A stretch of DNA of 63,080 nt, counting the filler, from assembly GCF_002087085.1 (NCBI RefSeq). It is 7 parts of 7 records of this genome, joined end to end, with 100 filler letters (N's around TTAATTAATTAA, not from the genome) between each part and the next. Parts side by side here need not be neighbours in the genome. Positions count along the whole stretch, not along the records: positions 30,113 to 42,275 come from NZ_MWQY01000039.1; 6 more parts are not named here. One strand, 5' to 3'. A program made the translations under genes and the position numbers. The notes below the pieces were generated by a model, which worked only from the letters and a program-made list of their open reading frames with translations, made no database searches and had not been told where the DNA came from. This document shows, one piece after another, positions 17,442-60,688 of this stretch; position 1 is the stretch's first letter, and every line of letters starts with the position of its first letter.

Positions 17442-17541
17442 NNNNNNNNNNNNNNNNNNNNNNNNNNNNNNNNNNNNNNNNNNNNTTAATTAATTAANNN
17501 NNNNNNNNNNNNNNNNNNNNNNNNNNNNNNNNNNNNNNNNN
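17442..17541. other. Artificial contig linker
   Basis: N run with central TTAATTAATTAA (stops in all frames). Confidence 0.98.
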
Positions 17542-30012: not shown

Positions 30013-30112
30013 NNNNNNNNNNNNNNNNNNNNNNNNNNNNNNNNNNNNNNNNNNNNTTAATTAATTAANNNNNNNNNNNNNNNNNNNNNNNNNNNNNNNN
30101 NNNNNNNNNNNN
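30013..30112. other. Artificial contig linker
   Basis: N run with TTAATTAATTAA. Confidence 0.98.
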
Positions 30113-30167
30113 ATCCTAACATATTTCCCCGCTCTATGGGAATTTATCTATTTTTCAGGAGACCCTA
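30113..30167. mobile_element. IS terminus (IS5-like) inserted in an Rhs core
   Basis: TTTTTCAGGAGACCCTA joins directly to Rhs core codons YVENDPVNWVDP. Confidence 0.72.
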
Positions 30168-30570
30168 TGTGGAGAATGATCCGGTGAATTGGGTTGACCC
30201 ATTCGGATTGATGCCGGAGGTTCCGGGGGATGGGACGGTAGTTGATCCAGATGATGGATTATCAGCAGCAGAAAAAGATTTAGCTGCTTCAAGAGAATTA
30301 TCTATAAAAGATGAAGAAATTATGAAAGAAACATTACACAAACAAGAGTTAGTTGGTATTGCAGAAATAGTTGTAGGTGGTATTGGAATATTTGCAGGAG
30401 GAAATGTGCCTGCTGCATTTGTTATGGCGGATGGTGCTATTCGATATACAAAAGCGAAGTATGCTAAAGAATTTTATTCGACGCGAGATTCAATACGATT
30501 TATTTCTGAATTGTCTACTCCGGCTGTAAAAAATTTGGCTGAGGAATTATGGGAAAGGCATGATGATTGA
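30166..30570 (+). pseudogene. Rhs core end plus C-terminal toxin tip 1, IS-truncated
   Basis: NDPVNWVDPFGL core boundary followed by a tip with a Gly/Ala-rich hydrophobic segment. Confidence 0.85.
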
Positions 30571-30733
30571 TAAAAAATATCTTAGGATTATCAATGTAGT
30601 TTTTCTTTTGCTTCTTGTTATATTAGGAATAATTGGAATGAAGAAAGATAAATTTACAGCGATTCCGATGATTGTTATTGGAATTAGTGGTATCTGTGTT
30701 GAAGTGACTATAATCTCATGGAGGAAGAAATGA
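30560..30733 (+). CDS. 57-aa two-TM protein, candidate immunity protein (not in the ORF track)
   Basis: MMIDKKYLRIINVVFLLLLVILGIIGMKKDKFTAIPMIVIGISGICVEVTIISWRKK*; overlaps the toxin stop and the next start (ATGA). Confidence 0.7.
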   Translation: MMIDKKYLRIINVVFLLLLVILGIIGMKKDKFTAIPMIVIGISGICVEVTIISWRKK

Positions 30734-30915
30734 ATCTCTACTTTAATGATTATTACTTCCTTAGCATTGTTTTCTTTGTTTTCGGTTGTTTTTTTGTTTT
30801 TAAAATGAATAGAGTATTAAGAATAAAAAGGAAAACAAAAATTCCGCTGATTATTATATATTTGATAGCTACATTGATCTGTTTCTTTTCCATAGTTTAT
30901 TTAGTTTTTGGGTGA
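30730..30915 (+). CDS. 61-aa two-TM protein, candidate immunity protein
   Basis: Two hydrophobic helices around a basic loop; translationally coupled, with GGAGG upstream. Confidence 0.7.
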   Translation: MNLYFNDYYFLSIVFFVFGCFFVFKMNRVLRIKRKTKIPLIIIYLIATLICFFSIVYLVFG

Positions 30916-31001
30916 AGAAAAATAATTATACGTTTCAAAGGAAGAAGTGCAGGCCAAAACGAACTAAGCTGTGCTCATTTTATAAAAAGAAATAGGAGAC
31001 T

Positions 31002-31922
31002 GTGTATGTTTTAATCCTGAACAAAAGCTACGGTTTCCATAAACAACTGGAATGGAACAGGGAGAGTACGGAAACCTACCTCTACGAGGCGTTGAGCTTT
31101 GACATTCTGGCGGAATACCGAGATACTGAGTATGAAGTGAACCGACGAAGCAGACACTTCTTCCCATCCTTCTCGAACAGATTCAAGCCCATAGCGGAGT
31201 ACATAACAGCCAATGGACGGCACCTGTCGAGAAAGGAGTTTGCCGAAAGCAGCTGGGGACGCCTGCGCTGTAAAGACAAGGACTACTATCTGCAGGATGT
31301 ACTGGGATCGGTAGTGGGATTAACCGACGAGCATGGACACCAGAAAGAGGAATACCGCTACGATGTGTGGGGTAAGGAGTACCACGAGAAAAATGGCCAT
31401 CCCTATTCCGACATCTTCCCTACACATTACGGCTATAATGGTAAGCGGTTTGATCCGAAGGTTGGGCTGTATGATTACGGCTTCAGGGACTACAAGCCCG
31501 ACATCAACAGATGGACGTCGATCGATCCGATACGATCGGGTAATAACTGGTACGCCTATGTGGGGAATGATCCGGTGAACTGGGTTGATCCGTTGGGGTT
31601 GTTGCCGGAGGTTCCGGGGGATGGGACGGTGTTTGAACCAGATGACGGACTATCAGTGGCTGAAAAAGATTTAGCCGCTTCAAGAGAATTAGCGAGATTA
31701 GAAACATTATATTCTGAACTTGAAGAAGCAGATAAAGATTTCGGTGAAGCTGCAGTCGGGATGTTTGTTGTTGCTCAATATGATCGAGCTTTTGATCAGT
31801 CAATAGTGTCTACAAATTTTGCTGAGGAACTAAGAGAACAGCTTATTAGTAATCAAAGAAGAGGTGAAAAGATTCGATCTGAGATTAATCGGATATTTGA
31901 TAATTCAATTTATAAAGCATAG
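31002..31922 (+). CDS. Orphan Rhs core fragment plus C-terminal toxin tip 2
   Basis: YYLQDVLGSV, YRYDVWG, GYNGKRFD, LYDYGFRDY, RWTSIDP and NDPVNWVDPLGL; 5' truncated. Confidence 0.9.
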   Translation: MYVLILNKSYGFHKQLEWNRESTETYLYEALSFDILAEYRDTEYEVNRRSRHFFPSFSNRFKPIAEYITANGRHLSRKEFAESSWGRLRCKDKDYYLQDVLGSVVGLTDEHGHQKEEYRYDVWGKEYHEKNGHPYSDIFPTHYGYNGKRFDPKVGLYDYGFRDYKPDINRWTSIDPIRSGNNWYAYVGNDPVNWVDPLGLLPEVPGDGTVFEPDDGLSVAEKDLAASRELARLETLYSELEEADKDFGEAAVGMFVVAQYDRAFDQSIVSTNFAEELREQLISNQRRGEKIRSEINRIFDNSIYKA

Positions 31923-31934
31923 GAGCATATTGGA

Positions 31935-32324
31935 ATGGGTGATTACCTAAGTATAATAATGGCCCTGATTCTGTTGACTGTGTTTGGGGTACCATTAATC
32001 TTTTTCTGTAAATATCTAATACTAAAAAATAGAATGAAATGGTTCTTAAAAAATGGAATAATAATTGACGCAAAAATCGTAAAGATAGAAAATGAACCAT
32101 TTTTACGATATCCAACGAACTCAAGCCATATGTATAATACGACTGTTCATAGATTAATAGCGATAGCTGAAATTGGTAAAATCAAATATAGGTTTAGAAG
32201 TGAAAGACTGACTAAAAATGAACATCATTTTAAGCTCGGTGACCATGTACCTGTCCTTATAAAACCTGATAATCCACTTAAATATTTTTTTGACCCTTTG
32301 ATCAATATAACACGAGAACAATAA
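31935..32324 (+). CDS. Candidate immunity protein (DUF3592-like, N-terminal TM)
   Basis: Immediately after tip 2 and AT-rich; KNGIIIDAKIV...GDHVPVLIKPDNP pattern. Confidence 0.7.
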   Translation: MGDYLSIIMALILLTVFGVPLIFFCKYLILKNRMKWFLKNGIIIDAKIVKIENEPFLRYPTNSSHMYNTTVHRLIAIAEIGKIKYRFRSERLTKNEHHFKLGDHVPVLIKPDNPLKYFFDPLINITREQ

Positions 32325-32509
32325 CATACTTGTTATGGTGTAGCTGCTAAGGATATCAAGGCACTCACACCGGAATGAAATTGCAGGTTTAATACGGGAG
32401 AACAATTTCTCACATAATCCTCCCTTTCGGGTGTTGACAGGATGCGTATTATGGATAAAAATAGGATTTAATATTTTAATGTCTATTTAGAGATATTAGT
32501 GAATTAACA

Positions 32510-34006
32510 ATGAAAAGAACCCTGCAGAAGAATCTAATAATTGTAATTCTTTCCGTTCTCCTTATTCTGATCTGCGTATTCTGCGTCGGCATTTCCATGC
32601 TGATAACCTCACGCAACGAGAAATCCCTGTCGGATTTGCATGATGTACTCAAAAAGCAAGGCGACGTTCTCGATGAACAAAGGGACCTGATAAGCGACCA
32701 GCAGAAACTTCTGGATGACTACACACATGCTTTGACCTCCTTTGAGATGCCCACCGGAACCTATGTTCTCTCTACAGAAGAGCGGCGGCTTCTACTGCAA
32801 GGGATCAGGGAGGAGTTTGGTACACGTCTGGAAGGGATTGAACACAAGCTCGATACGGTGAATGCCCACGAAATCAGCCATTTTGAAGCGACCAGAAACG
32901 ACCTGCATCACCTTGCAGAGGAAGGCACGGGACATTATCAGCAGCTTCACCGGCAGATAGAGCTGATGAATACCGATTTGAACGCCCATTTTGATGGGCT
33001 GACTTCTACAATTACAGCCACTGAGAGTCTTCCAGAGACCTTGTTGGCATCTGAATATCGGCAGTTCGGAGATACAAGCCGGGATGAGGGTGAATACGCC
33101 GATGCTGTCGAATACTACCGGAAGTCCGCCGGGTATCAGGAAACGAATGAGACCCTGCTCAGGTATGCGGAGTCCCTCTATCTGGCCGATCCGGCAGTAC
33201 GAAAGGACGCTGAAATCATACAAAGCCTGCTGACCGTTCTGGAACGTGACCCGGTACACTCGGAGGCTTTGACACTGCTGGGAGATGTCTACCTTGAGCA
33301 GGGAAACCTCAACGACGCGGAAATGTATTACGAACGCCTGGTTCGTCTGGAACCGGAGAATGGTGCTGCGCGTAAACGCCTGGGCGAGATTTATCTGAAA
33401 ATCAAAGAGTATGAAAAGGCGGTCGGGCATCTTTCAAGGGCAGGAGAGCTACTGCCCGACGATCCTGTGGTTCCCTGTGAATTGGGCGATGCATATTTTG
33501 AGCTTGGAGACTATGAAGCTGCAGAGAGCGCCTATTCACATGCGCTCTCGGTCAGGTATCCCTATCCCCCGGCGCTTATAGGTCGCGGCAACAGTCGCAG
33601 TGCGTTGGGCCTGCTCGACAAGGCAGTTGAAGATATTTCCGCTTACATAAGACTGCGCCCGCGGGATTTCCATGCCCTGGTGGAGCTTGGAGATGTGTAT
33701 GAACGCATGGGTATGAATGCCGAGGCACTGAAATCCTGGGAAAAGGCTCGCGGTGTTCTTTCTCTCAACAGCGAAGAGGACATCCTGCGTTGGGGTGATG
33801 TAAGCCGCAGGCAGGCCCGTCTCTGTTTGTCCCACGGTGATTATCGGGGAACTCTGTTCTATGTGGAAAAAGGTCTCGAACTGACGCAGGACAGGGAACT
33901 GCTGGCGCTGGGGATGACCGCGGCGGACAAGATGGGCGATGAGGATTCTCACAGAAAGTACAGCCGCCGGATGGGGGCTCTCGAGGAGCAGGGGATGGCA
34001 GAATGA
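32510..34006 (+). CDS. Membrane-anchored coiled-coil/TPR protein
   Basis: N-terminal TM, coiled coil and multiple TPRs (LGDVYLEQG...A, LGEIY, LGDAYF). Confidence 0.88.
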   Translation: MKRTLQKNLIIVILSVLLILICVFCVGISMLITSRNEKSLSDLHDVLKKQGDVLDEQRDLISDQQKLLDDYTHALTSFEMPTGTYVLSTEERRLLLQGIREEFGTRLEGIEHKLDTVNAHEISHFEATRNDLHHLAEEGTGHYQQLHRQIELMNTDLNAHFDGLTSTITATESLPETLLASEYRQFGDTSRDEGEYADAVEYYRKSAGYQETNETLLRYAESLYLADPAVRKDAEIIQSLLTVLERDPVHSEALTLLGDVYLEQGNLNDAEMYYERLVRLEPENGAARKRLGEIYLKIKEYEKAVGHLSRAGELLPDDPVVPCELGDAYFELGDYEAAESAYSHALSVRYPYPPALIGRGNSRSALGLLDKAVEDISAYIRLRPRDFHALVELGDVYERMGMNAEALKSWEKARGVLSLNSEEDILRWGDVSRRQARLCLSHGDYRGTLFYVEKGLELTQDRELLALGMTAADKMGDEDSHRKYSRRMGALEEQGMAE

Positions 34007-35040
34007 AGCGTCTATGGGTTGTACTGATCATGTTCGTGATTTTTTCCGCGGCTGGTTTTGCGGTGGAAACCGTTCTTGCTCCAATGGAAGTTGTAGGCCA
34101 GGCAGTTCCAGGGGAAGAACTGCCCAAGGGTGATTCCTTCTCGAAAACTGTGGTCAGGTACTTGAAGGTATTGGACAGATCGGGCGTCTTGCAGCCTTCG
34201 GTACACCCCTTGCCGAAGGGAGAGGACCATCCGCGTTCGATTCTTGACGCCTCCTCTTTTTCCGCTTATTACGGGCTGGATATGCTCGTTTTTGGGCGCT
34301 TGTCCTGTACTCCCGAGTACATCGACGGGTACCTACAGGTGTACGATGTACAGAATGGGGAGATTCGTCACCGGATTTACAGCCGCGATCAGGCCGGCAG
34401 GTATGAGCGTCTGGCGGAGGATCTGGCCGGAAAACTCTTTGAGTACCTGACCGAGGATTTGGGACTCGCTCCGGTTTACCCGTCTTACGAGGTCCGGCGA
34501 AATATCTGGGACCTGCGGGGACGGATTGGTTACTGGAGTCCCATGGGCTCCTGGCGGGACAATCTGTCGGGTATCTTATCATTGGAGGCGGCGGGGTTTC
34601 TGACTCCCGAGTATCCCCTTGGCGATTACGGCCCCTGGCTGTACGGGATGAGATTCGGTCTCTCCCTCGGATACGATGTCGGAGTCAGTACTCCGGGGCA
34701 TGAGGAGTTTGTCTTTCACGGGATCCGGACAGGAATACCTGTGGAACTGACTCTTATGCGATACAGTGACAGCAGAAAGAGCTATTCCGTGGGGCTTACT
34801 CCCTTTTTTATGCTGGATGTGCTGGTTCAGGAGCGCCGCTATGAGGGAAGCTATACGACAAGTACCGCAGCGATTGGAATGAGTCTTTCGGGAACAGTCC
34901 GGTACTCTCTGAATGAAACCTCCGCGCTGGGACTCGGCCTTGAGTTTTCCTCTGTGTTCTACGATCCGCCGCGCTATGAGATCCGGCCGAGTCTGGTATA
35001 TGAGTGCCGTTTTCCGGGCAGTAAGGAGAAAGTTGAATGA
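34003..35040 (+). CDS. Exported protein: TolB-N/CsgG-like domain plus predicted outer-membrane beta-barrel
   Basis: Signal peptide; LVFGRL..LQVYDVQNGEI..LAEDLA pattern; amphipathic strands in the C-terminal half; ATGA-coupled on both sides. Confidence 0.55.
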   Translation: MKRLWVVLIMFVIFSAAGFAVETVLAPMEVVGQAVPGEELPKGDSFSKTVVRYLKVLDRSGVLQPSVHPLPKGEDHPRSILDASSFSAYYGLDMLVFGRLSCTPEYIDGYLQVYDVQNGEIRHRIYSRDQAGRYERLAEDLAGKLFEYLTEDLGLAPVYPSYEVRRNIWDLRGRIGYWSPMGSWRDNLSGILSLEAAGFLTPEYPLGDYGPWLYGMRFGLSLGYDVGVSTPGHEEFVFHGIRTGIPVELTLMRYSDSRKSYSVGLTPFFMLDVLVQERRYEGSYTTSTAAIGMSLSGTVRYSLNETSALGLGLEFSSVFYDPPRYEIRPSLVYECRFPGSKEKVE

Positions 35041-35831
35041 TAAAAGGAATATGCACACTTGCGGGCCTCTTCTTTATTGTATGCGGAGTCGTTTCCTGCG
35101 GGACCGGCCTTATCTCCGATATGGGAAGGCTGGATGAAGATCCGGAGATTGCCAGTCCGGGTGTGGAATCTTTTACGGTACCGAACCTGATAAGCGTTAC
35201 CTGGAATGAAGATGAAGCCGCGGATGAGTACCTGCTGCGCCGTGCGGCGGGAGAGAACAATCCCCTGAACTGGGTCGACGTGTACAGGGGCAGTGATCTC
35301 AGCTGGCAGGATAATGGTGTTGGCAATGAGCGTTTGAATCTGTATCAGCTATATAAAATACGGGGGTCTGTTCTCTTCGGCCCCTCGGAGTCGGTGCTCG
35401 GGGTTGGGAGTGATATCTGCCGGGACCCCCATGAACCAAACGACTCGATCGCCACTGCCACAGTGCTGGAATCCGATCTGGAGTCGAACCTGTGGTATTT
35501 TGTCGCTACAAACGGCAAAGAGAGCCGGGACTTCGACTGGTATGCAGTCAGCCTGCCGCCGCGGCGCCAGGCGGTTATTGTTGTTACGGATAATACGAAT
35601 ACCAGTTCCACCTATAATTACATGAGCTGGTCGACTCCGTCAAAAAGTGAAGCAGATATCGTCAGCGGCGAATCACTTTCAATCCAGAATCATGAATATG
35701 AAGCTGCGGTTGTGTACTTCCGTGTTTCTCCGAACGAACAGACCTTTCTGTCTCAGCTATCCGGATACGGAGGGATGGTAATCTCGTATACAGTGAGTCT
35801 GGATCAGATAACGAATTTCAATAATGAGTAA
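35037..35831 (+). CDS. Lipoprotein with FN3-like and PPC-like beta domains
   Basis: Lipobox VVSC; ISVTW..EYLLRR; DPHEPNDS and DFDWY motifs. Confidence 0.65.
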   Translation: MIKGICTLAGLFFIVCGVVSCGTGLISDMGRLDEDPEIASPGVESFTVPNLISVTWNEDEAADEYLLRRAAGENNPLNWVDVYRGSDLSWQDNGVGNERLNLYQLYKIRGSVLFGPSESVLGVGSDICRDPHEPNDSIATATVLESDLESNLWYFVATNGKESRDFDWYAVSLPPRRQAVIVVTDNTNTSSTYNYMSWSTPSKSEADIVSGESLSIQNHEYEAAVVYFRVSPNEQTFLSQLSGYGGMVISYTVSLDQITNFNNE

Positions 35832-35851
35832 GTAAAACCCGGAGTAGAAAA

Positions 35852-36508
35852 GTGGCAGATGTAAAAGGGTGGTGTATTTTTATTGCGTTTGCGGTCCTGT
35901 TTTCGGGATGCCAGTTTATCGATACCTCGAAACCGACGGGATGGGACGGAAATCTCGGCGGAGACGGGGTACAGGTGGATTCGACACTCTTCTCGGAGGA
36001 CGAAACCGCCGGGGAAATTATCTTCGAGACCAACGATGAGCAGTATTCCGACCCGTACGGAAGCAGTTTCTGGTATCCCGTGGAGAATTCCGACCAGCAG
36101 CCTTTTACTGAATGGACAGTGAGTGCGGCAAAATCGAGTGGAAACCGAAACGCCGGTTTCGGGATCGTTTTCTGTCACAGCGTGGATGAAGACTCCGGCG
36201 AAGAGCGAATGCTGAGCGTCATGATTCGGACCGACAGGTATTACCAGATAGCGTCAATCATCGGAACCGAGTATGCGCCGAATACAAGCTGGACCCAGAG
36301 TTCCGCAATCTACGGGACCGGTCTTTTTAATGAACTAAGGGTACAGAGAGCCTCGGACGGTATTTTTACCCTGTATATAAATGATCAGGAGATTACTGAT
36401 TTCGAGTATTCAGGATTCAGCGGAGGAAGCCAGGGATATCTGGTGGTTGTTTCTCCCCTGGAGGATTTTCCCGATGTGCCGGTGAATGTCTCGTTTAAAA
36501 CCGAATAG
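35852..36508 (+). CDS. Lipoprotein with ConA/LamG-like beta-sandwich
   Basis: Lipobox FSGC; GFGIVF, NELRV and FTLYINDQ pattern. Confidence 0.62.
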   Translation: MADVKGWCIFIAFAVLFSGCQFIDTSKPTGWDGNLGGDGVQVDSTLFSEDETAGEIIFETNDEQYSDPYGSSFWYPVENSDQQPFTEWTVSAAKSSGNRNAGFGIVFCHSVDEDSGEERMLSVMIRTDRYYQIASIIGTEYAPNTSWTQSSAIYGTGLFNELRVQRASDGIFTLYINDQEITDFEYSGFSGGSQGYLVVVSPLEDFPDVPVNVSFKTE

Positions 36509-36517
36509 GAAAAGAAG

Positions 36518-39500
36518 ATGAAAAATGTCGTAGTACGAAGTTTGACGCTTTTTGTTATCTACAGCCTGGTTCTTGCACCCTTGCCGTTGTTCAGTGAAAC
36601 ACCCCGGGATGCCCTGTTGCGCGGGCTGCCGACGTATGAAAAAGACCCGGACAGTGCATACTCCGCCGAGATAGGAGGCGCCGGGGGAGTTATCTCCTTC
36701 GATGGCGTTACGGTAGACGTGCCCGCCGGTGCGGTGGACGACACCGTTGAAATAACGGTGATCAAGCTCGGCGGAACAGCTCCGATAGGCGGAGGGCGTC
36801 AGAATGTTACCAAGGGGGCGGCGGCGTACCGCTTTCTTCCTGACGGGCAACAATTCCAAAAGCCCGTGAGTATAAGCATTCCCTATGATCCTGAAATGAA
36901 TAAATCCGAAGCCGCGTTGAGCAATCTTTTTACCTATTTTTTCAATGAAGATAAACAAAGATGGGAACGTCTGGAGCGAGTTTCCCTGAATAATGAGGCG
37001 AGTACGGTAACGAGTCTGAGCACCCATTTTACCGACATGATCAATTCCACCTTAACACTGCCCGAGAGTCCTGATCCTGTGGAGTTCGACCTGAACTCGA
37101 TAAAGAATCTGGAAGCGGCGAATCCTGATGCAGGAGTCCCCGGGCTGGAGGGACTGGAGGGGAGCTGGTCCGGCTCAGCCTCCTTTTCCATCCCCCTGCG
37201 GCTTCCCCCGGGACGGGGAAAGGCCTCCCCTCAGGTATCCCTGCGCTACGACAGCGGGCGATCTGCGGGGGTGATGGGTGCAGGTTTCTCCCTGCCTGTT
37301 AGCACAATTGATACGGATACGCGTTTCGGTCTGCCGGAATACGACGGAAAGGATACCTATCTGCTGGACGGCGAGGAACTGGTAAACATTACTCCCGACT
37401 CATCCTCGGGGTCGGTCTACAGGCAGCGGAAAGAGGGGCGATTCGCCCGGATAGAACGCTTTCGTTCTACTTCTGCGGGTACAGATTATTGGAAAGTAAC
37501 GGACAGGGACGGGACCGTTCGTTACTACGGTAACCACGCGGCTGTAAGCGACGGCGCAGAACAGTCTGCACCCTGGCTTGGTCCCGACAGAACGAACGGA
37601 ATGCAGGTCTATCGCTGGTATTTGTCGAGGATTGTCGATATGGACGGAAATACCGTCGACTACCGCTATACCTACGATGAAAGCGACAAGAATCTGTATC
37701 TGAAGAGCATATCCTGGTCAGGGATAAATGGCAATGATGCCGATGAGAGCGGTTATTATCGGATCGATTTCGGGTACAACGAGGCGGGACACCTGGAACC
37801 GACGGAGGAAAGTACGCGCTTAGGCTATTCGGTCGAGAGTAGCGGTGTGCACAGCTGGACGGGAGAGTTCGCGTCGAGTCTGAGCGGGGGCGAGCGGCAG
37901 GATGTCCGCAGCGACGGGCGCGGAAGGTTTATCTGCAAGACCTCGAAGCGCCTGGACCGGATAGGGATATCCGCGGGGGAACAGGGGAATCGAACAGAGA
38001 AGCGCTCTTATGAGTTCTATTACCGGATGGACGATTTCGGGCGGACGATTCTGGACCGGTACGAGGAATGGGCCCCGGGAGCTGCTGATGCGCTCTATTC
38101 CTTCGGCTTTGACTATTACGGTCTGGAAAAAGATATTGATGAGCTCCCCCAGGGCTTCGGGCCTGAGGAGATCTGGAGTGTAGGGTCGGGGGCGCAGGAG
38201 AAGGACCTTTCCAATTCCAGGTCCGTATCCGCCGGGGCCAACCTGTATACCGGCCTTGAAATATTCATAAAGATTCCGTTTGTCGGAAAAAAGACCCTGG
38301 TCTCTCTGGGTGTGCGGGGAGGGAGCTCCGGCGGTTCGAGCGTATCCCTGACGGATGTGGCCGATATTGATGGAGACGGCATCCCTGAACTGATCTGGAA
38401 AAGCGGAAACGATGTAAACGGCTACGCAGCGGACCCGGAGCTCTACGGCTGGGCAGGCTCCGCGGTCTCTCTTGACGGATTTAACGGTCCCCTGTCGAAA
38501 ACCTCGAACTCCTCCGCCTCCCTGGGGCTCTCGATGAAAATAGGCCCGGTGTCGGGAGGCAAGACGAAACAGTGGAACTGGGCCGATGGAAAGCGTTCAA
38601 TCATGGATGTCAACGGCGACGGATTCATCGATGTGGTGGAGAAGGGCACAGCCTTGTACGGTCTGAACCGGGGGGATGGTACCATCGACTGGACCGCGGG
38701 CTGGGTCGGAGGGGCCGACCCTGACCGCGCAGAATCGTATACGGAAGATGAATTAAAGGAGTTCGACGGGACATATTACCGGAAGGACCCCTTCCGCAGG
38801 TGGGACGCCTATCGCTCGGGAAGGGTACTGGTTAGCGACGAGGTCGGCTACAACCCGAATGCACAGATATCCTCCGATGGTGCGGTTGCGGAGATCCGGG
38901 CCCCGGAGCGCGGGAGCAACGCGGCGCTGACAGAGCTTGCTATAAGCGAGGATTCTCCACAGAACGGACGAAGCGATGCCGAGTATGAGCTCAGCCGCGG
39001 GGATTCCCTCTTTTTCCGCCTGAATCCGAACAAGGACGAGCGCGGAGATATCGTGGACTGGAGTACACGCATCCGCTACCGGGATATTCAGTACTTTGAG
39101 GATATGGAGGATTCCCCCGTACTCTGTTTGCCTGCACAAGTAAGCAGAAGCATGTACGAGGACGGCCTTGAGGATTTTTATACCCCCCACAGGCATGAAA
39201 CAGAAAGCGACGGACATACAAGCCATTACTACACCTACGACCGGAACAGTGACTGGATTTCCGTGCTGACCCAGGGGAATATTAGTACATTGTTGTCGAA
39301 GGGCTTTTTTGTCCCGCGCCTGATCCCGGCGAATACCTTTTATTCAATTTATAACAGCCTAAGTGAAATCCATAAAAAGCAATTCTATTTCTGCTACTAC
39401 CATGAACCGGCAGGAGACCGGTATCGGCTTGTTGAGGCAAAAAGGACTGTAGCCTTTAGCTGCCTGGAGAGCATCCTGAACTCGAATGCAGGCTTGCGGG

Positions 39501-42275
39501 CACAGCTTTCCGGCTATACCTTCCCGGATGGCGATGAGGTTTTTCCGGTCCCTGATGAAAACCAGAGGGTGTACAGCTACAGTACGGCGGCACCGCCGGT
39601 ATCGGTTGAGCCGATACTCTGCAGAGCCATCGAGCCGGAAACGGCCCTGGGAGGAACAGAAAGCGACGGTACTATCCTGCTTGACCGTATGGGCAATGAG
39701 GCGGGCGATAGCTACCGTGTCTATCTTGAACCCGACGGAGAGGATTCGTACGCCCTGGTGGATGAGAGCGACAGCGAAGATGGAACGGCCTACCGGACAA
39801 CGGAGATTTCATCCTCCGATACGCTAATCCGTGTCCGCTACGAGCGGGACGGGGTTCGGCATACCTATGCGCTTACACAGCCGTCGTATCGGCTGGAACA
39901 GGTGCCGGGCGAGCTGTTCCGCCCGGCAGTGGAGGAGTACTTCAGCGATTGCCGCACAGGCGTACCCGATCCGGCACGCTTGTCTGCAGGACAGCATGCG
40001 GCATTCCAAGCCCAGGCAGCCCTGGCCGAAATCTCCATACCGGAAGACGCGTATCTGCTGGTCATCCATAACGAAGGGACGGTGGACGAGTACAGTCTCT
40101 ATGAGCTGAGTGAGGAACTTTCTGCCGAAGACCAGGCCGCGGTCTACAGCGTATGGGCATCCTTCGATGCTGTGGAATCCAATAACGGTACGACGAGCCT
40201 CTTTTTCAGTTTTCTGAACACAGACGGCGAAGAAGCGCTGTGGCCGAGGCTCCTGACTGCGGAGGAAGCGGGCGCATTGTGCGGCAGCCAGGACATTTCA
40301 GAAAGCCTGTTTACTCCCGTCAGCCTTCTGGACGGCAGCACCGTCTACACGGTTGCCGATAATCTGGATGGAGATCAAGAGAACCGGCTGACTGAGGCCC
40401 TCCGTTCCTATCGGATATACGCCGAACTGTTTCCGTTTTACAACCTGGATGAGTCTGATGATATGTACAGTCTTGATGATGAAACGGACCCGGAGTATTT
40501 CGAATTAATAGAAGAGCTCTTCCGGACGGCGGAATTACGGGTAATGACGCGGCTCGCGCGGAGCCTGACCTACTCCTCGAACGGTGTGTTTCCTGTACGG
40601 GGATCGGTGGAAGCCCGTACGGGCGATGAAATCTCTGTCAGCAGGAATGAAGAGCAGGCCGCAGGAGGCTGGGAAGAGAGCGGGGTCGTCAATATTCCGC
40701 GCTTTGATGGTGAGGGGGATACCGTCCTTGTTCCAGGCTATGTGCATGTTTTCGACAGCCGCTACGATTTTGCGGCAGAGAGCATAATTGCGGAAGACGA
40801 AAATGAGTACGATTTTGTCGATACGAAAATTGAGGATAATGAGACGACCCTGGAGAGCCTTTACGGGGCAAATATACCCAGGGAGTATCTTGAAGGCGGT
40901 GTGTACGGCTGGTATTACGGCGCGTGGAGCGGATTTTATGCATGGAACAGTGATTGGCTGGGAGACGCACCGAATTATAGCGGGCAGCACAACACGGGAG
41001 TAACCCCCCCGCCGTATTATACACAGCTGAATCCGAATCCTCCGACTGCAGATACCGCAGACAGCCATCTGCATACCTGGGGACGGCAGGAACTTGTCAT
41101 GAGCGACGATACCTGGATTGGTTCGGTGGATGTAATTACAGACACGAGTATCGATGATAATGGCAACCCGGTGTATACACCGTATCAGTTTTCTGTCGCC
41201 CTTACGGGAGAAACCATGTGGCCCACCCGCAGCGGAGGCGATTATTACTGGACGATTCCGAATATAACTCTTGACGAGGAGGGCAGTAGCGGTCCTTCGC
41301 AATCCCTCTCTTTTATTAGTACCAGCCGCGGAAAATCTACGGACATAAACGGCGAAGTCTCCTTCGGAATGGGAGCCAGCGGAGGCTCCAACCGCGGAAA
41401 TACCCAGCAGTACGAAGGCTTCATGGATATCAATGGTGACCGTTTCCCGGATCTTGTACGCTTCGACAAACAGGGGAAGGGCGGCAGTTTTACCTATTGG
41501 CCGGGAACTGGGTACGGCTTTGGTGCCGCAGAACGGGGAAACAAGGTAATAGATTACATTACCCGGAATTCCAATGACGGACTAACCTTCGGCGCGAGCA
41601 TCGGCAGCTCTTCCGGCGGCGGAATCTACGAGGCCGACGGGGAGGGGTTTATACAGGAGTTCAAAACGAACGTTCAGGATGCCACGGCTGAACCAAATTT
41701 ATCTGCAGGAATAAATGTATCCGCCGCCGAAAGCATCCAGAACATGGGACTACTGGATATAAACGGCGACGGTCTGCCGGACCAGGTGACCGGATCATCA
41801 GATCTGAACGCTTACCTGAACGCCGGCGGGACCTTTGTCGGCACCGCCGGTTTCTCCGGACCGGCCATAACGAAAAAGGTTGCCGCCAGCGCGGGGGGTG
41901 TCTTGTCAGGGGAGACCCAGGGGATCTCCTACTCCCATACCGGGTCCTTCGGCGGAACCTTTTCCCTCTCTGGCGGAGTGAATGTCGGAGCGGCCTCCGC
42001 GACGCTCGGGTCTTCGTTCAGCTACGGCGGATCGACAAAAAAGGTAAACGGGCGTCTGATGGACATAAACGGGGACGGCTTACCCGATTATGTGGTCAAG
42101 GACAACAACGAAGGCTTCTTCCGGGTACGGGTGAACACGGGCAGCGGCTTTAGCCCCTCGGAAATCCGCCTGTATCGCCCCGGCTGGGGAACCGGTATGG
42201 ATTTAAATGCCGACCTGGAAAGTGACCTGAGGCAGATAGCGAATAACCTGAGCTTTCCCGGCTCGGCGGCGGGAG
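36518..42275 (+). CDS. Giant polymorphic toxin precursor: signal peptide, ZU5, SpvB/TcaC N-terminal domain, FG-GAP repeats (3' end cut off by contig end)
   Basis: ZU5 (GGVISFDGVTVDVPAGA...PDGQQFQKPVSISIPY...THFT), SpvB (FSIPLRLPPGR..PQVSLRYDS..G.GFSL), five DxN/DGDGxxD-like repeats; no stop before the gap. Confidence 0.88.
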
Positions 42276-42375
42276 NNNNNNNNNNNNNNNNNNNNNNNNN
42301 NNNNNNNNNNNNNNNNNNNTTAATTAATTAANNNNNNNNNNNNNNNNNNNNNNNNNNNNNNNNNNNNNNNNNNNN
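42276..42375. other. Artificial contig linker
   Basis: N run with TTAATTAATTAA. Confidence 0.98.
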
Positions 42376-42430
42376 ACCCTCACTCCCAAAATAGTAAAGG
42401 AGCTGACTAAGATTCTTCTTAGACAGCCCC
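42376..42430. mobile_element. Probable IS1182-like terminus
   Basis: The first 55 nt of the contig end in TTAGACAGCCCC and contain an internal hairpin GGAGCTGACTAAG...CTTAGACAGCCCC, resembling IS1182 right ends. Confidence 0.45.
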
Positions 42431-42633
42431 TTTTACGTCAGCGAGCGAAGGGAATCCTCTCCGGTCGTCGTCATCGTGACGACTCCCTTCGAGCCGCCGC
42501 GTTCGCTGGCGCGCGGCATCGTGCCGCGCTTCCGGGCCTGTGCGGCCCGCGCTCACTTGTTTCGATTCCCTTCTCTATATAGTAAAAAGCCTCCCTGCCG
42601 GGAGGCTTTTTACGTCAGCGAGCGAAGGGAATC
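42431..42633 (-). repeat. 26-bp duplication of the tRNA-Gly(CCC) 3' end with a structured insert
   Basis: TTTTACGTCAGCGAGCGAAGGGAATC at 42431-42456 and 42608-42633 (177-bp period). Confidence 0.88.
42584..42611 (-). terminator. Terminator after tRNA-Gly(CCC)
   Basis: AAAAAGCCTCCCTGCCGGGAGGCTTTTT. Confidence 0.85.
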
Positions 42634-42687
42634 GAACCCTCGTCACAAGCTTGGGAAGCTTGGGTAATACCATTATACGACGCTCGC
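42617..42687 (-). tRNA. tRNA-Gly (CCC)
   Basis: GCGAGCGTCGTATAATGGTATTACCCAAGCTTCCCAAGCTTGTGACGAGGGTTCGATTCCCTTCGCTCGCT folds as a cloverleaf; CCA not encoded. Confidence 0.96.
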
Positions 42688-49809: not shown

Positions 49810-49909
49810 NNNNNNNNNNNNNNNNNNNNNNNNNNNNNNNNNNNNNNNNNNNNTTAATTAATTAANNNNNNNNNNNNNNNNNNNNNNNNNNNNNNNNNNN
49901 NNNNNNNNN
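49810..49909. other. Artificial contig linker
   Basis: N run with TTAATTAATTAA. Confidence 0.98.
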
Positions 49910-55248: not shown

Positions 55249-55348
55249 NNNNNNNNNNNNNNNNNNNNNNNNNNNNNNNNNNNNNNNNNNNNTTAATTAA
55301 TTAANNNNNNNNNNNNNNNNNNNNNNNNNNNNNNNNNNNNNNNNNNNN
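55249..55348. other. Artificial contig linker
   Basis: N run with TTAATTAATTAA. Confidence 0.98.
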
Positions 55349-60588: not shown

Positions 60589-60688
60589 NNNNNNNNNNNN
60601 NNNNNNNNNNNNNNNNNNNNNNNNNNNNNNNNTTAATTAATTAANNNNNNNNNNNNNNNNNNNNNNNNNNNNNNNNNNNNNNNNNNNN
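60589..60688. other. Artificial contig linker
   Basis: N run with TTAATTAATTAA. Confidence 0.98.

Follow-up and report, generated by a model that had tools for sequence, protein, structure and literature searches.

A five-gene Rhs toxin cassette of spirochaetes repeatedly associated with a secretin

Introduction

The export of very large Rhs- and Tc-type toxins that are independent of type VI secretion is a largely open question in diderm bacteria, and the one Tc route that has been worked out is cell lysis. In the account of the TcdB/TcaC class given by Zhang et al. in 2012 (PMC3482391), a signal peptide is combined with an SpvB domain, an integrin-like propeller, RHS repeats and a variable tip, often with an N-terminal ZU5 domain which is proposed there to release the toxin at the surface; spirochaetes are included among the carriers. 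We describe here a cassette of five genes encoding a toxin with this architecture, located on the 12.2 kb contig C33 (NZ_MWQY01000039.1), which makes up positions 30113–42275 of the window. The window is the whole stretch of 63,080 nucleotides that was analysed, and its seven joined contigs (C30, C32, C33, C35, C37, C38 and C44) belong to a draft spirochaete genome (GCF_002087085.1, called G000 below; 4.2 Mb in 79 contigs, 97% complete). Four genes for envelope proteins precede the toxin gene, and the cassette is repeatedly tied to a secretin gene, which is new here. In the passages of Zhang et al. that deal with the class, accessory genes and secretin are not named; the four-gene set, its conservation and the secretin link are added by the present work (PMC3482391).

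The toxin resembles the TcB–TcC cocoons (TcdB2–TccC3, YenB–YenC2) by its SpvB domain, FG-GAP repeats, TcdB_toxin_midN region and Rhs shell, and by the pattern PxxxxDPxG[LM] before a variable tip. It differs from them in being a single polypeptide of about 3350 residues with a Sec signal, a ZU5-like domain and an insertion of about 900 residues in the propeller. The spirochaete system also differs in that no TcA match was found (with silent controls), that the one recognisable tip is an M23 peptidase, and in the presence of immunity-like genes and of orphan tips. The exit of very large Tc-type toxins from a diderm cell has a described parallel in the type 10 lysis system of Yersinia entomophaga. 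In that system (PMC10847048), a holin/endolysin/spanin cassette frees cytoplasmic toxins devoid of a signal peptide, whereas the toxin described here has a signal peptide and is accompanied by a secretin and envelope proteins. Long YD-repeat genes were noted in Treponema denticola and T. pedis in one genome report (PMC3747143), and the cassette offers a context for these genes, as candidate relatives only. Full-text literature searches, which did not extend to subscription journals, turned up no account of these accessory genes and none of an Rhs/Tc-type toxin tied to a secretin in spirochaetes.

Results

Layout of the cassette

A first-pass annotation had read positions 32510–42275 as a tight operon for an inner-membrane coiled-coil/TPR protein, an exported barrel protein, two lipoproteins and a toxin of more than 1900 residues with its own signal peptide. 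This layout was borne out. All five genes were recovered as open reading frames (ORFs) with ATGA overlaps at 34003–34006 and 35037–35040, and the two later junctions are gaps of 20 and 9 nt. The components are as follows.

32434–32462, + strand: promoter-like site TTGACA-17-AAAAAT, 10/12 consensus positions, a consensus match only, about 50 nt 5' of the first cassette gene
32510–34006, + strand: coiled-coil/TPR gene, 498 residues (ORF; N-terminal transmembrane helix, coiled coil, TPR)
34003–35040, + strand: barrel-protein gene, 345 residues (ORF, AlphaFold2 model)
35037–35831, + strand: lipA, 264 residues (ORF, lipobox with Cys21)
35852–36508, + strand: lipB, 218 residues, GTG start (ORF, lipobox with Cys20)
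36518–42275, + strand: toxin gene, 5' 1919 codons of a TcB–TcC-type Rhs fusion of about 3350 residues (ORF, Pfam, ortholog)

The toxin gene is open for 1919 codons up to the contig end, and its signal peptide was judged by eye and from the alignment. The first pass also pointed out that the contig has no VgrG, PAAR, Hcp, TcA or TpsB gene, which is correct and, for a piece of 12 kb, trivial. Across the 97%-complete genome no match was found to T6SS_HCP or PAAR, for which the control genomes were responsive (VgrG was not searched). There was also no match in the whole genome to TcA_TcB_BD, VRP1 or ShlB, a weak result since the controls for all three families were silent.

Recurrence of the cassette

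Contig C1 of the same genome carries a second complete cassette, with 26–36% identity gene for gene, and an ortholog of the window cassette at 88–93% identity is present in genome G002. G000 and G002 possess two divergent full cassettes each. Relatives of lipA were detected by a profile in 8/41 related genomes, and a pattern scan of 185,579 species genomes returned 24 loci, all of them in Spirochaetota. In total 31 non-redundant lipA loci were scored by hidden Markov models (HMMs), built for each family from the window and 5–9 related loci, so that only the later loci are independent. The five genes stand in the same order at 20 of the 23 lipA loci with room on both sides. The lipB gene was found at 25/25 lipA loci with at least 700 nt downstream, and always directly 5' of the toxin gene. 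The toxin was present at 22/23 loci, the exception being L044 where an acyltransferase-like ORF takes its place. The barrel gene was present at 28/30 lipA loci; it is missing in L052 and L053, a remnant in L029 and partial in L054. A gene order that recurs in this way is far beyond chance, and the co-conservation of accessory genes and toxin across Spirochaetota, put forward as a check in the first pass, was found both in the second divergent copy and in these 20/23 loci.

Two loci depart from the common layout. On contig C6 of G002, a group II intron reverse transcriptase/maturase gene (L026, 7247–8578; RVT_1 9e-41, GIIM 2e-10) separates lipB from the toxin frame in the second cassette, and this frame as listed for L026 starts at about residue 56 of the window toxin. 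In Spirochaetia bacterium PG1894_85, lipA is a frame of 857 codons (L056, 5696–8266) made of several tandem lipA-like units, after which another lipA-like ORF starts.

Association with a secretin

The sole secretin of G000 is encoded on contig C18 (Secretin, 2.6e-31). Besides the secretin gene, the operon contains homologues of GspE, GspF and GspG (identified by tblastn), five further unassigned ORFs, and a 174-residue homologue of the CarboxypepD_reg lipoprotein found in Breznakiella. In Breznakiella homolactica RmG30 (L041) the two sets of genes are joined: on one strand and with no large gaps follow the secretin, GspE, GspF, GspG, pseudopilin-like ORFs, ORFs of 306 and 590 residues, a 190-residue CarboxypepD_reg lipoprotein, the four accessory genes and the toxin. 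The same type of layout was seen in L037, L038, L051 and L055, giving five loci where a type II operon ends with the cassette. In the congener Ca. Marispirochaeta associata (L027/L046) a secretin operon is adjacent and divergent to the cassette. In G230 a toxin gene directly follows secretin-GspE-GspF-GspG, and the accessory genes with a second toxin are found about 25 kb further on the same strand.

A more compact arrangement exists in genus g35 of the Treponema family. In G319 a gene for a 399-residue protein with Secretin_N and Secretin domains lies between lipA and lipB. All four cassette-bearing genomes of this genus (G319, G201, G250 and G290) have as their only secretin a frame of 405 codons between lipA and lipB-toxin. 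In these four genomes no T2SSE match over the cut-off and no T2SSG match were found, GspF families not having been searched there.

The link is phyletic as well as physical. Full-length lipA was present in 12 of 401 sampled Spirochaetota genomes, 11 of which have a secretin, and within family f34 a secretin was found in 8/8 lipA genomes compared with 11/42 others; same-clade genomes are not independent, so these co-occurrence counts overstate the support and are indicative only. In G011, the single lipA genome devoid of secretin, lipA and lipB are accompanied by a stop-containing remnant of the barrel gene and by a toxin gene broken up into several ORFs; this cassette looks like a case of decay.

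The resemblance to type II secretion suggested by these loci comprises the secretin, GspE, GspF, GspG and pseudopilin-like genes, on C18 and upstream of the cassette in five loci, and a cargo that would be exported by Sec. The cassette system differs by four extra envelope proteins linked to the cargo and, in genus g35, by a short secretin with neither GspE nor GspG. To our knowledge an Rhs-shell cargo of about 370 kDa has no precedent in type II secretion.

Domain organization of the toxin

The toxin possesses a Pfam SpvB domain at residues 218–391 (PF03534, 5.9e-30; 37169–37690, + strand), the start of which aligns with residues ~31–70 of YenB/TcdB1, and an FG-GAP_3 match (8.1e-10). Searched with a profile of the 11-member family, the TcdB2–TccC3 fusion was matched with an E-value of 1.4e-50 and YenB/TcdB1 was matched across the SpvB domain. 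Three further regions were delimited.

36665–37042, + strand: ZU5-like domain, residues ~50–175 (weak Pfam ZU5 matches in relatives, alignment)
38675–41317, + strand: stretch of about 900 residues, residues ~720–1600, between FG-GAP-type DxNGDG motifs (zero Pfam or PDB sequence matches)
41711–42202, + strand: FG-GAP repeats and start of TcdB_toxin_midN, residues 1732–1895 (Pfam)

The stretch of about 900 residues is conserved in the family; compared with TcB, it is inserted at the expected contact site with TcA. The ZU5-like domain ends with H170-F171-T172 (nucleotides 37025–37033). The H and the F were found in 17/17 sequences, the third residue being T in 16/17 and S in 1/17. We predict that this is a self-cleavage site, with cleavage between HF and T by a chemistry that is presumably that of ZU5/Nup98-type sites.

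The TcdB_toxin_midN match stays below the cut-off in the cut window copy (21.1 vs 24.8 bits) and reaches 1.5e-17 in the ortholog and 5e-25 in the paralog. The Rhs part is absent from the window contig; RHS_repeat was matched at 2.4e-24 in the ortholog and 1.3e-18 in the paralog. What had been taken for a gap at 42276 is the end of contig C33, where the toxin gene is cut. When the G002 ortholog (3364 residues, 91% identical to the window toxin) was used as a ruler, the window toxin could be followed onto contig C63 (residues 1902–2127, 95%) and then C39 (residues 2110–3199, 92%, followed by its own tip), the pieces being left unjoined. Judging from these alignments, the toxin gene is not truncated in nature. 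The last 54 toxin codons on C33 are a repeat also present on the 357 bp contig C74, and additional copies of the toxin core end, each with another tip, lie on C43, C40, C48 and C36; these toxin repeats explain the assembly break at the end of C33. The Rhs core and tip anticipated in the first pass for the full protein were seen in the ortholog, in the paralog and on other contigs. The core-end pattern PxxxxDPxG[LM] gave no match on C39 and was matched in the C1 toxin and in the orphan cassettes described below.

The paralog on C1 is a protein of 3345 residues with a Peptidase_M23 tip, followed by a 206-residue ORF with a lipobox. The M23 tip suggests a bacterial target, and the pair would fit an antibacterial tip acting in the periplasm together with a periplasmic immunity protein. 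For five other toxins or pieces of toxins, the C-terminal 220–231 residues matched no Pfam family, and the same was true of several downstream ORFs. The hallmarks of polymorphic toxins that are present comprise the signal peptide (judged by eye), SpvB with a propeller, RHS repeats, variable tips and orphan cassettes, with immunity genes recognised by position only. The toxin is polymorphic and probably antibacterial.

Predicted structures of the accessory proteins

The product of the first gene matched TPR_1 in Pfam (1.4e-25). Its relatives vary from 195 to 515 residues and have in common a transmembrane helix, a variable coiled coil and a first TPR-like block, the long forms containing extra TPRs. 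Against solved structures, the coiled-coil/TPR profile retrieved generic TPR proteins only.

No Pfam family was found on the barrel protein, lipA or lipB, and the barrel profile gave no useful match among solved structures (best E 1.3). The AlphaFold2 model of the barrel protein, computed from a 24-sequence alignment with a mean predicted local distance difference test (pLDDT) of 86.8, shows two domains and supports the exported barrel protein of the first pass. Residues 164–337 are modelled as an 8-stranded barrel, close to NspA (Z 18.3, root-mean-square deviation 2.5 Å over 150 residues), the OmpA transmembrane domain (Z 16.5) and OprF-N (Z 16.5); the Foldseek E-value to an OmpA-short entry was 8.4e-9. 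Residues 20–155 adopt in the model a TolB-N fold (Z 11.9), also similar to an entry of the flagellar LPHT ring (Z 11.3), the CsgG curli complex (Z 10.9), PelC (Z 10.2) and LpoB. The protein-atlas neighbours carry LpoB/CsgG/TolB_N and OMP_b-brl families. According to the model, the barrel protein is anchored in the outer membrane and bears a periplasmic module of a type frequently seen as a ring beneath export channels; it is not a wide pore.

The PelC–PelB, CsgG and TolB systems resemble the cassette by the fold of the N-terminal domain and, in the case of Pel, by an accompanying TPR protein. The likeness to PelC and CsgG is at the fold level only: the domain is fused here to an 8-stranded barrel rather than lipid-anchored, and the cassette has no large barrel partner. 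The Slam (type 11) system was considered for its combination of a TPR module and an outer-membrane barrel, and TPR_Slam gave a sub-threshold match (27.9 vs 35.2 bits). Slam itself is a single polypeptide whose DUF560 barrel has 14 strands. This candidate was rejected on account of the 8-stranded model, the zero Pfam matches on the barrel and the TPR part, which is separate and anchored in the inner membrane.

The two lipoproteins of the first pass were corroborated by their lipobox cysteines, Cys21 of lipA being invariant in 10 sequences and Cys20 of lipB in 24. The N-terminal domain of lipA gave an Fn3-like match (E 0.025) in a sequence search of solved structures, and whole lipA an fn3 plus PPC protein-atlas lead (score 0.87), a lead only; lipA looks like an FN3-like N-terminal domain followed by a PPC-like C-terminal domain. 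The lipB model (pLDDT 88.8) is a ConA-like jelly roll, with CBM66 (Z 16.1) and a DUF1080-type protein (Z 14.1) as neighbours; by sequence the best match of lipB to a solved structure had an E-value of 0.44. A complex prediction of lipB residues 30–218 with toxin residues 28–217 yielded ipSAE interface scores of 0.00 and 0.01, which is uninformative either way.

A lipoprotein of 174–193 residues with a CarboxypepD_reg-like domain, in some cases with TPR, was encountered beside these genes (L041 7176–7745, L065 5900–6478, L068 3521–4045, L057 17468–17869). Its gene closes the type II operon of G000, stands directly 5' of the cassette in both Breznakiella and G319, and is still present in G103. 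The protein is a possible fifth member of the accessory set.

Discussion

A model for export, anchoring and release

We propose that the five genes provide the cargo module of an export or display system which relies on a secretin and handles a polymorphic antibacterial Rhs toxin; the four accessory proteins would dock and anchor this toxin and self-cleavage of the ZU5-like domain would release it. We give this proposal as a whole about an even chance. It builds on the observed gene order, conservation and domain content, on the predicted folds, and on the physical and phyletic link with the secretin. In this model, the toxin would reach the periplasm through Sec and fold there around its variable C-terminal tip. 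A secretin, in G000 that of the C18 type II operon, would then carry the toxin across the outer membrane or display it there. The four co-conserved proteins would be the binding partners of the toxin, cargo-specific docking and anchoring parts that hold it at the secretin or at the cell surface. The ZU5-like domain would finally cleave itself between HF and T and free the cocoon from its tether, to act on what is predicted to be a bacterial target. The presence in one genome of two divergent accessory sets and a single secretin argues for such cargo-specific partners. The channel is most likely the secretin and not the small barrel.

The first-pass annotation regarded the four accessory genes as an envelope-spanning helper set or translocon. 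The helper set gains from the co-conservation and from the predicted topologies, and the translocon loses from the 8-stranded barrel and the repeated secretin link. Dependence of export on a known system encoded elsewhere, which the same annotation counted against itself, is touched by the type II operon on C18, inasmuch as the toxin would depend on this secretin.

Several observations weigh against the proposed route. In width, a folded TcB–TcC cocoon roughly equals or exceeds the lumen of the known type II secretins, so that the passage would be tight at best, and we know of no Rhs or Tc protein among type II substrates. Neither cassette of G000 adjoins the C18 operon, and no type II gene was found within ~8–10 kb upstream of the cassette in L039, L048, L049, L052, L053 and L054. 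Among 25 sample genomes of the same class with a secretin, 16 are devoid of lipA, which indicates that the secretin is not reserved for the toxin cargo. G103, a genome of genus g35 in one complete contig, has two tandem lipB-toxin pairs with long frames, one of 3228 codons, and has lost lipA, the barrel gene and the secretin, of which only a 32-codon remnant remains 5' of lipB. The ZU5 family itself (PF00791) was matched in 13/17 toxin N-termini with a best E-value of 4.4e-4, every match being below the Pfam cut-off.

The cassette and secretin together could go further and represent a kind of secretion system of their own. In genus g35 of the Treponema family the type II machine would have been shed except for the short secretin, which together with the PelC-like anchor, the coiled-coil/TPR protein and two or three lipoproteins would bring a cocoon of about 370 kDa to the surface with no ATPase or pseudopilus, the ZU5-like domain acting as release switch. 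The four Treponema-family genomes with a short secretin inside the cassette hint at such a minimal secretin machine; we consider this extension less likely than not.

Other roles for the accessory genes have to be weighed. That the four proteins alone form a self-sufficient, envelope-spanning translocon with the barrel as outer-membrane channel would agree with the tight and conserved gene order, with predicted topologies that cover the inner membrane, the periplasm and the outer membrane, with the position of both G000 cassettes away from the secretin operon, and with the failure to find Hcp and PAAR in the genome. We regard it as very unlikely, because the 8-stranded model falls into the NspA/OmpA/OprF-N class, which is a class of anchors rather than protein channels (Z 18.3 with NspA) and no conduit for a protein of about 370 kDa, and because secretin genes lie inside or adjoining the cassette in many lineages. 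It is no more credible that the four genes are ordinary type II parts, analogues of GspC, GspL, GspM or a pilotin, with no specificity for the toxin. They do follow pseudopilin genes directly, in one operon, in five loci, and TPR lipoproteins and small lipoproteins are known as secretin pilotins. However, a single secretin operon faces two divergent accessory sets, each beside its own toxin, the 16 same-class secretin genomes do without lipA, and on C18 the usual positions of GspH to GspM are already taken by five further ORFs; we hold this explanation to be highly improbable.

A post-export role is a better founded alternative, one that we nevertheless find unlikely: lipA and lipB would be surface lipoproteins held by the barrel, displaying the toxin and/or binding target glycans in replacement of TcA, and the secretin would mainly serve to bring them and the toxin to the surface. 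The ConA-like/CBM fold of lipB (CBM66, Z 16.1), the fn3 and PPC leads of lipA, the failure to find TcA families in the genome (again with silent controls) and the retention of lipB with the toxin in G103, where other accessory genes were lost, are in line with it; spirochaetes also commonly expose lipoproteins at their surface. Work in the periplasm is suggested instead by the TolB-N/PelC-like domain and by the coiled-coil protein of the inner membrane, and a common fold proves no function. Finally, the toxin might never be actively secreted, the accessory proteins holding it beneath the outer membrane until it is packed into vesicles or set free by lysis, and the secretin link being due to shared regulation or a by-product of an island. 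The size of the cocoon relative to secretin passage and the long toxin frames kept by G103 with no secretin are compatible with this, as is the exit of known Tc toxins by lysis through the type 10 system (PMC10847048). We think it quite improbable, considering that holin, endolysin and spanin genes were not noticed in the cassette and that the sole, in-cassette secretin of four genomes with neither GspE nor GspG would be hard to explain had it no direct role.

The cassette is compact and conserved, and it links a cocoon toxin that would depend on Sec with a secretin and four envelope proteins in organisms that include cultivable carriers, such as Breznakiella homolactica RmG30 and, by family, Treponema, which makes the export question accessible to knockouts. 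The secretin-dependent proposal would also give the treponeme secretin a likely role; in Table 2 of one treponeme genome comparison (PMC8049484), no complete secretion system is listed for the genomes compared.

Related toxins in other spirochaete classes

Toxins with a ZU5-SpvB N-terminus and none of the four accessory genes were found in G138, G228, G238, G339, G077, G313, G193 and G268. Seven loci were examined (L058–L064, from G228, G238, G138, G339, G077, G193 and G268, G313 being left out). A lipobox stands at the start of the toxin in 7/7, and in 6/7 the toxin is preceded by a conserved gene for a lipoprotein of 475–517 residues, one of these lipoproteins matching CarboxypepD_reg below the threshold. 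At the seventh locus (G193) hardly any sequence is available upstream. These loci are a different and simpler type of cassette. A toxin lipidated in cis, with a self-cleaving domain behind the anchor, would be the simplest anchor-and-release design, and in the type found in the window the lipoproteins and the barrel protein would supply the anchor in trans.

Orphan Rhs cassettes and other Rhs loci

Upstream of the five-gene cassette on C33, and on the same strand, are two orphan Rhs cassettes, each followed by a small hydrophobic ORF.

30136–30570, + strand: first orphan Rhs C-terminal cassette, 5'-cut by the contig start, PVNWVDPFGL and a 119-residue tip (motif)
30718–30915, + strand: hydrophobic ORF of 65 residues, immunity-like by position only (zero Pfam families over the cut-off)
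31002–31922, + strand: second orphan Rhs C-terminal cassette, YD-type repeats, PVNWVDPLGL and a 106-residue tip (motif)
31935–32324, + strand: ORF of 129 residues with an N-terminal hydrophobic helix, immunity-like by position only (ORF)

No Pfam family was found on the two orphan tips (119 and 106 residues). Divergent from the type II operon on C18 (L068, 13747–20000, and L069) are genes for TatC, a radical SAM/SPASM protein, a 266-residue ORF, a DUF6531-Rhs protein of 2030 codons with many RHS repeats, and a further Rhs frame. This is a second, different Rhs locus, which adjoins the secretin. Beside the C18 secretin operon, where a third cassette was looked for, the HMMs of the four accessory families gave no match at E 0.1.

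Assembly features of the window

The contigs of the window are separated by artificial linkers, and neighbourhood arguments across these positions are therefore void.

17442–17541, 30013–30112, 42276–42375, 49810–49909, 55249–55348 and 60589–60688: artificial linkers, 44 N + TTAATTAATTAA + 44 N

On the next contig, just past the linker that follows C33, a sequence of about 26 nt, tttacgtcagcgagcgaagggaatc, is present twice, about 180 nt apart, within window positions 42420–42650.

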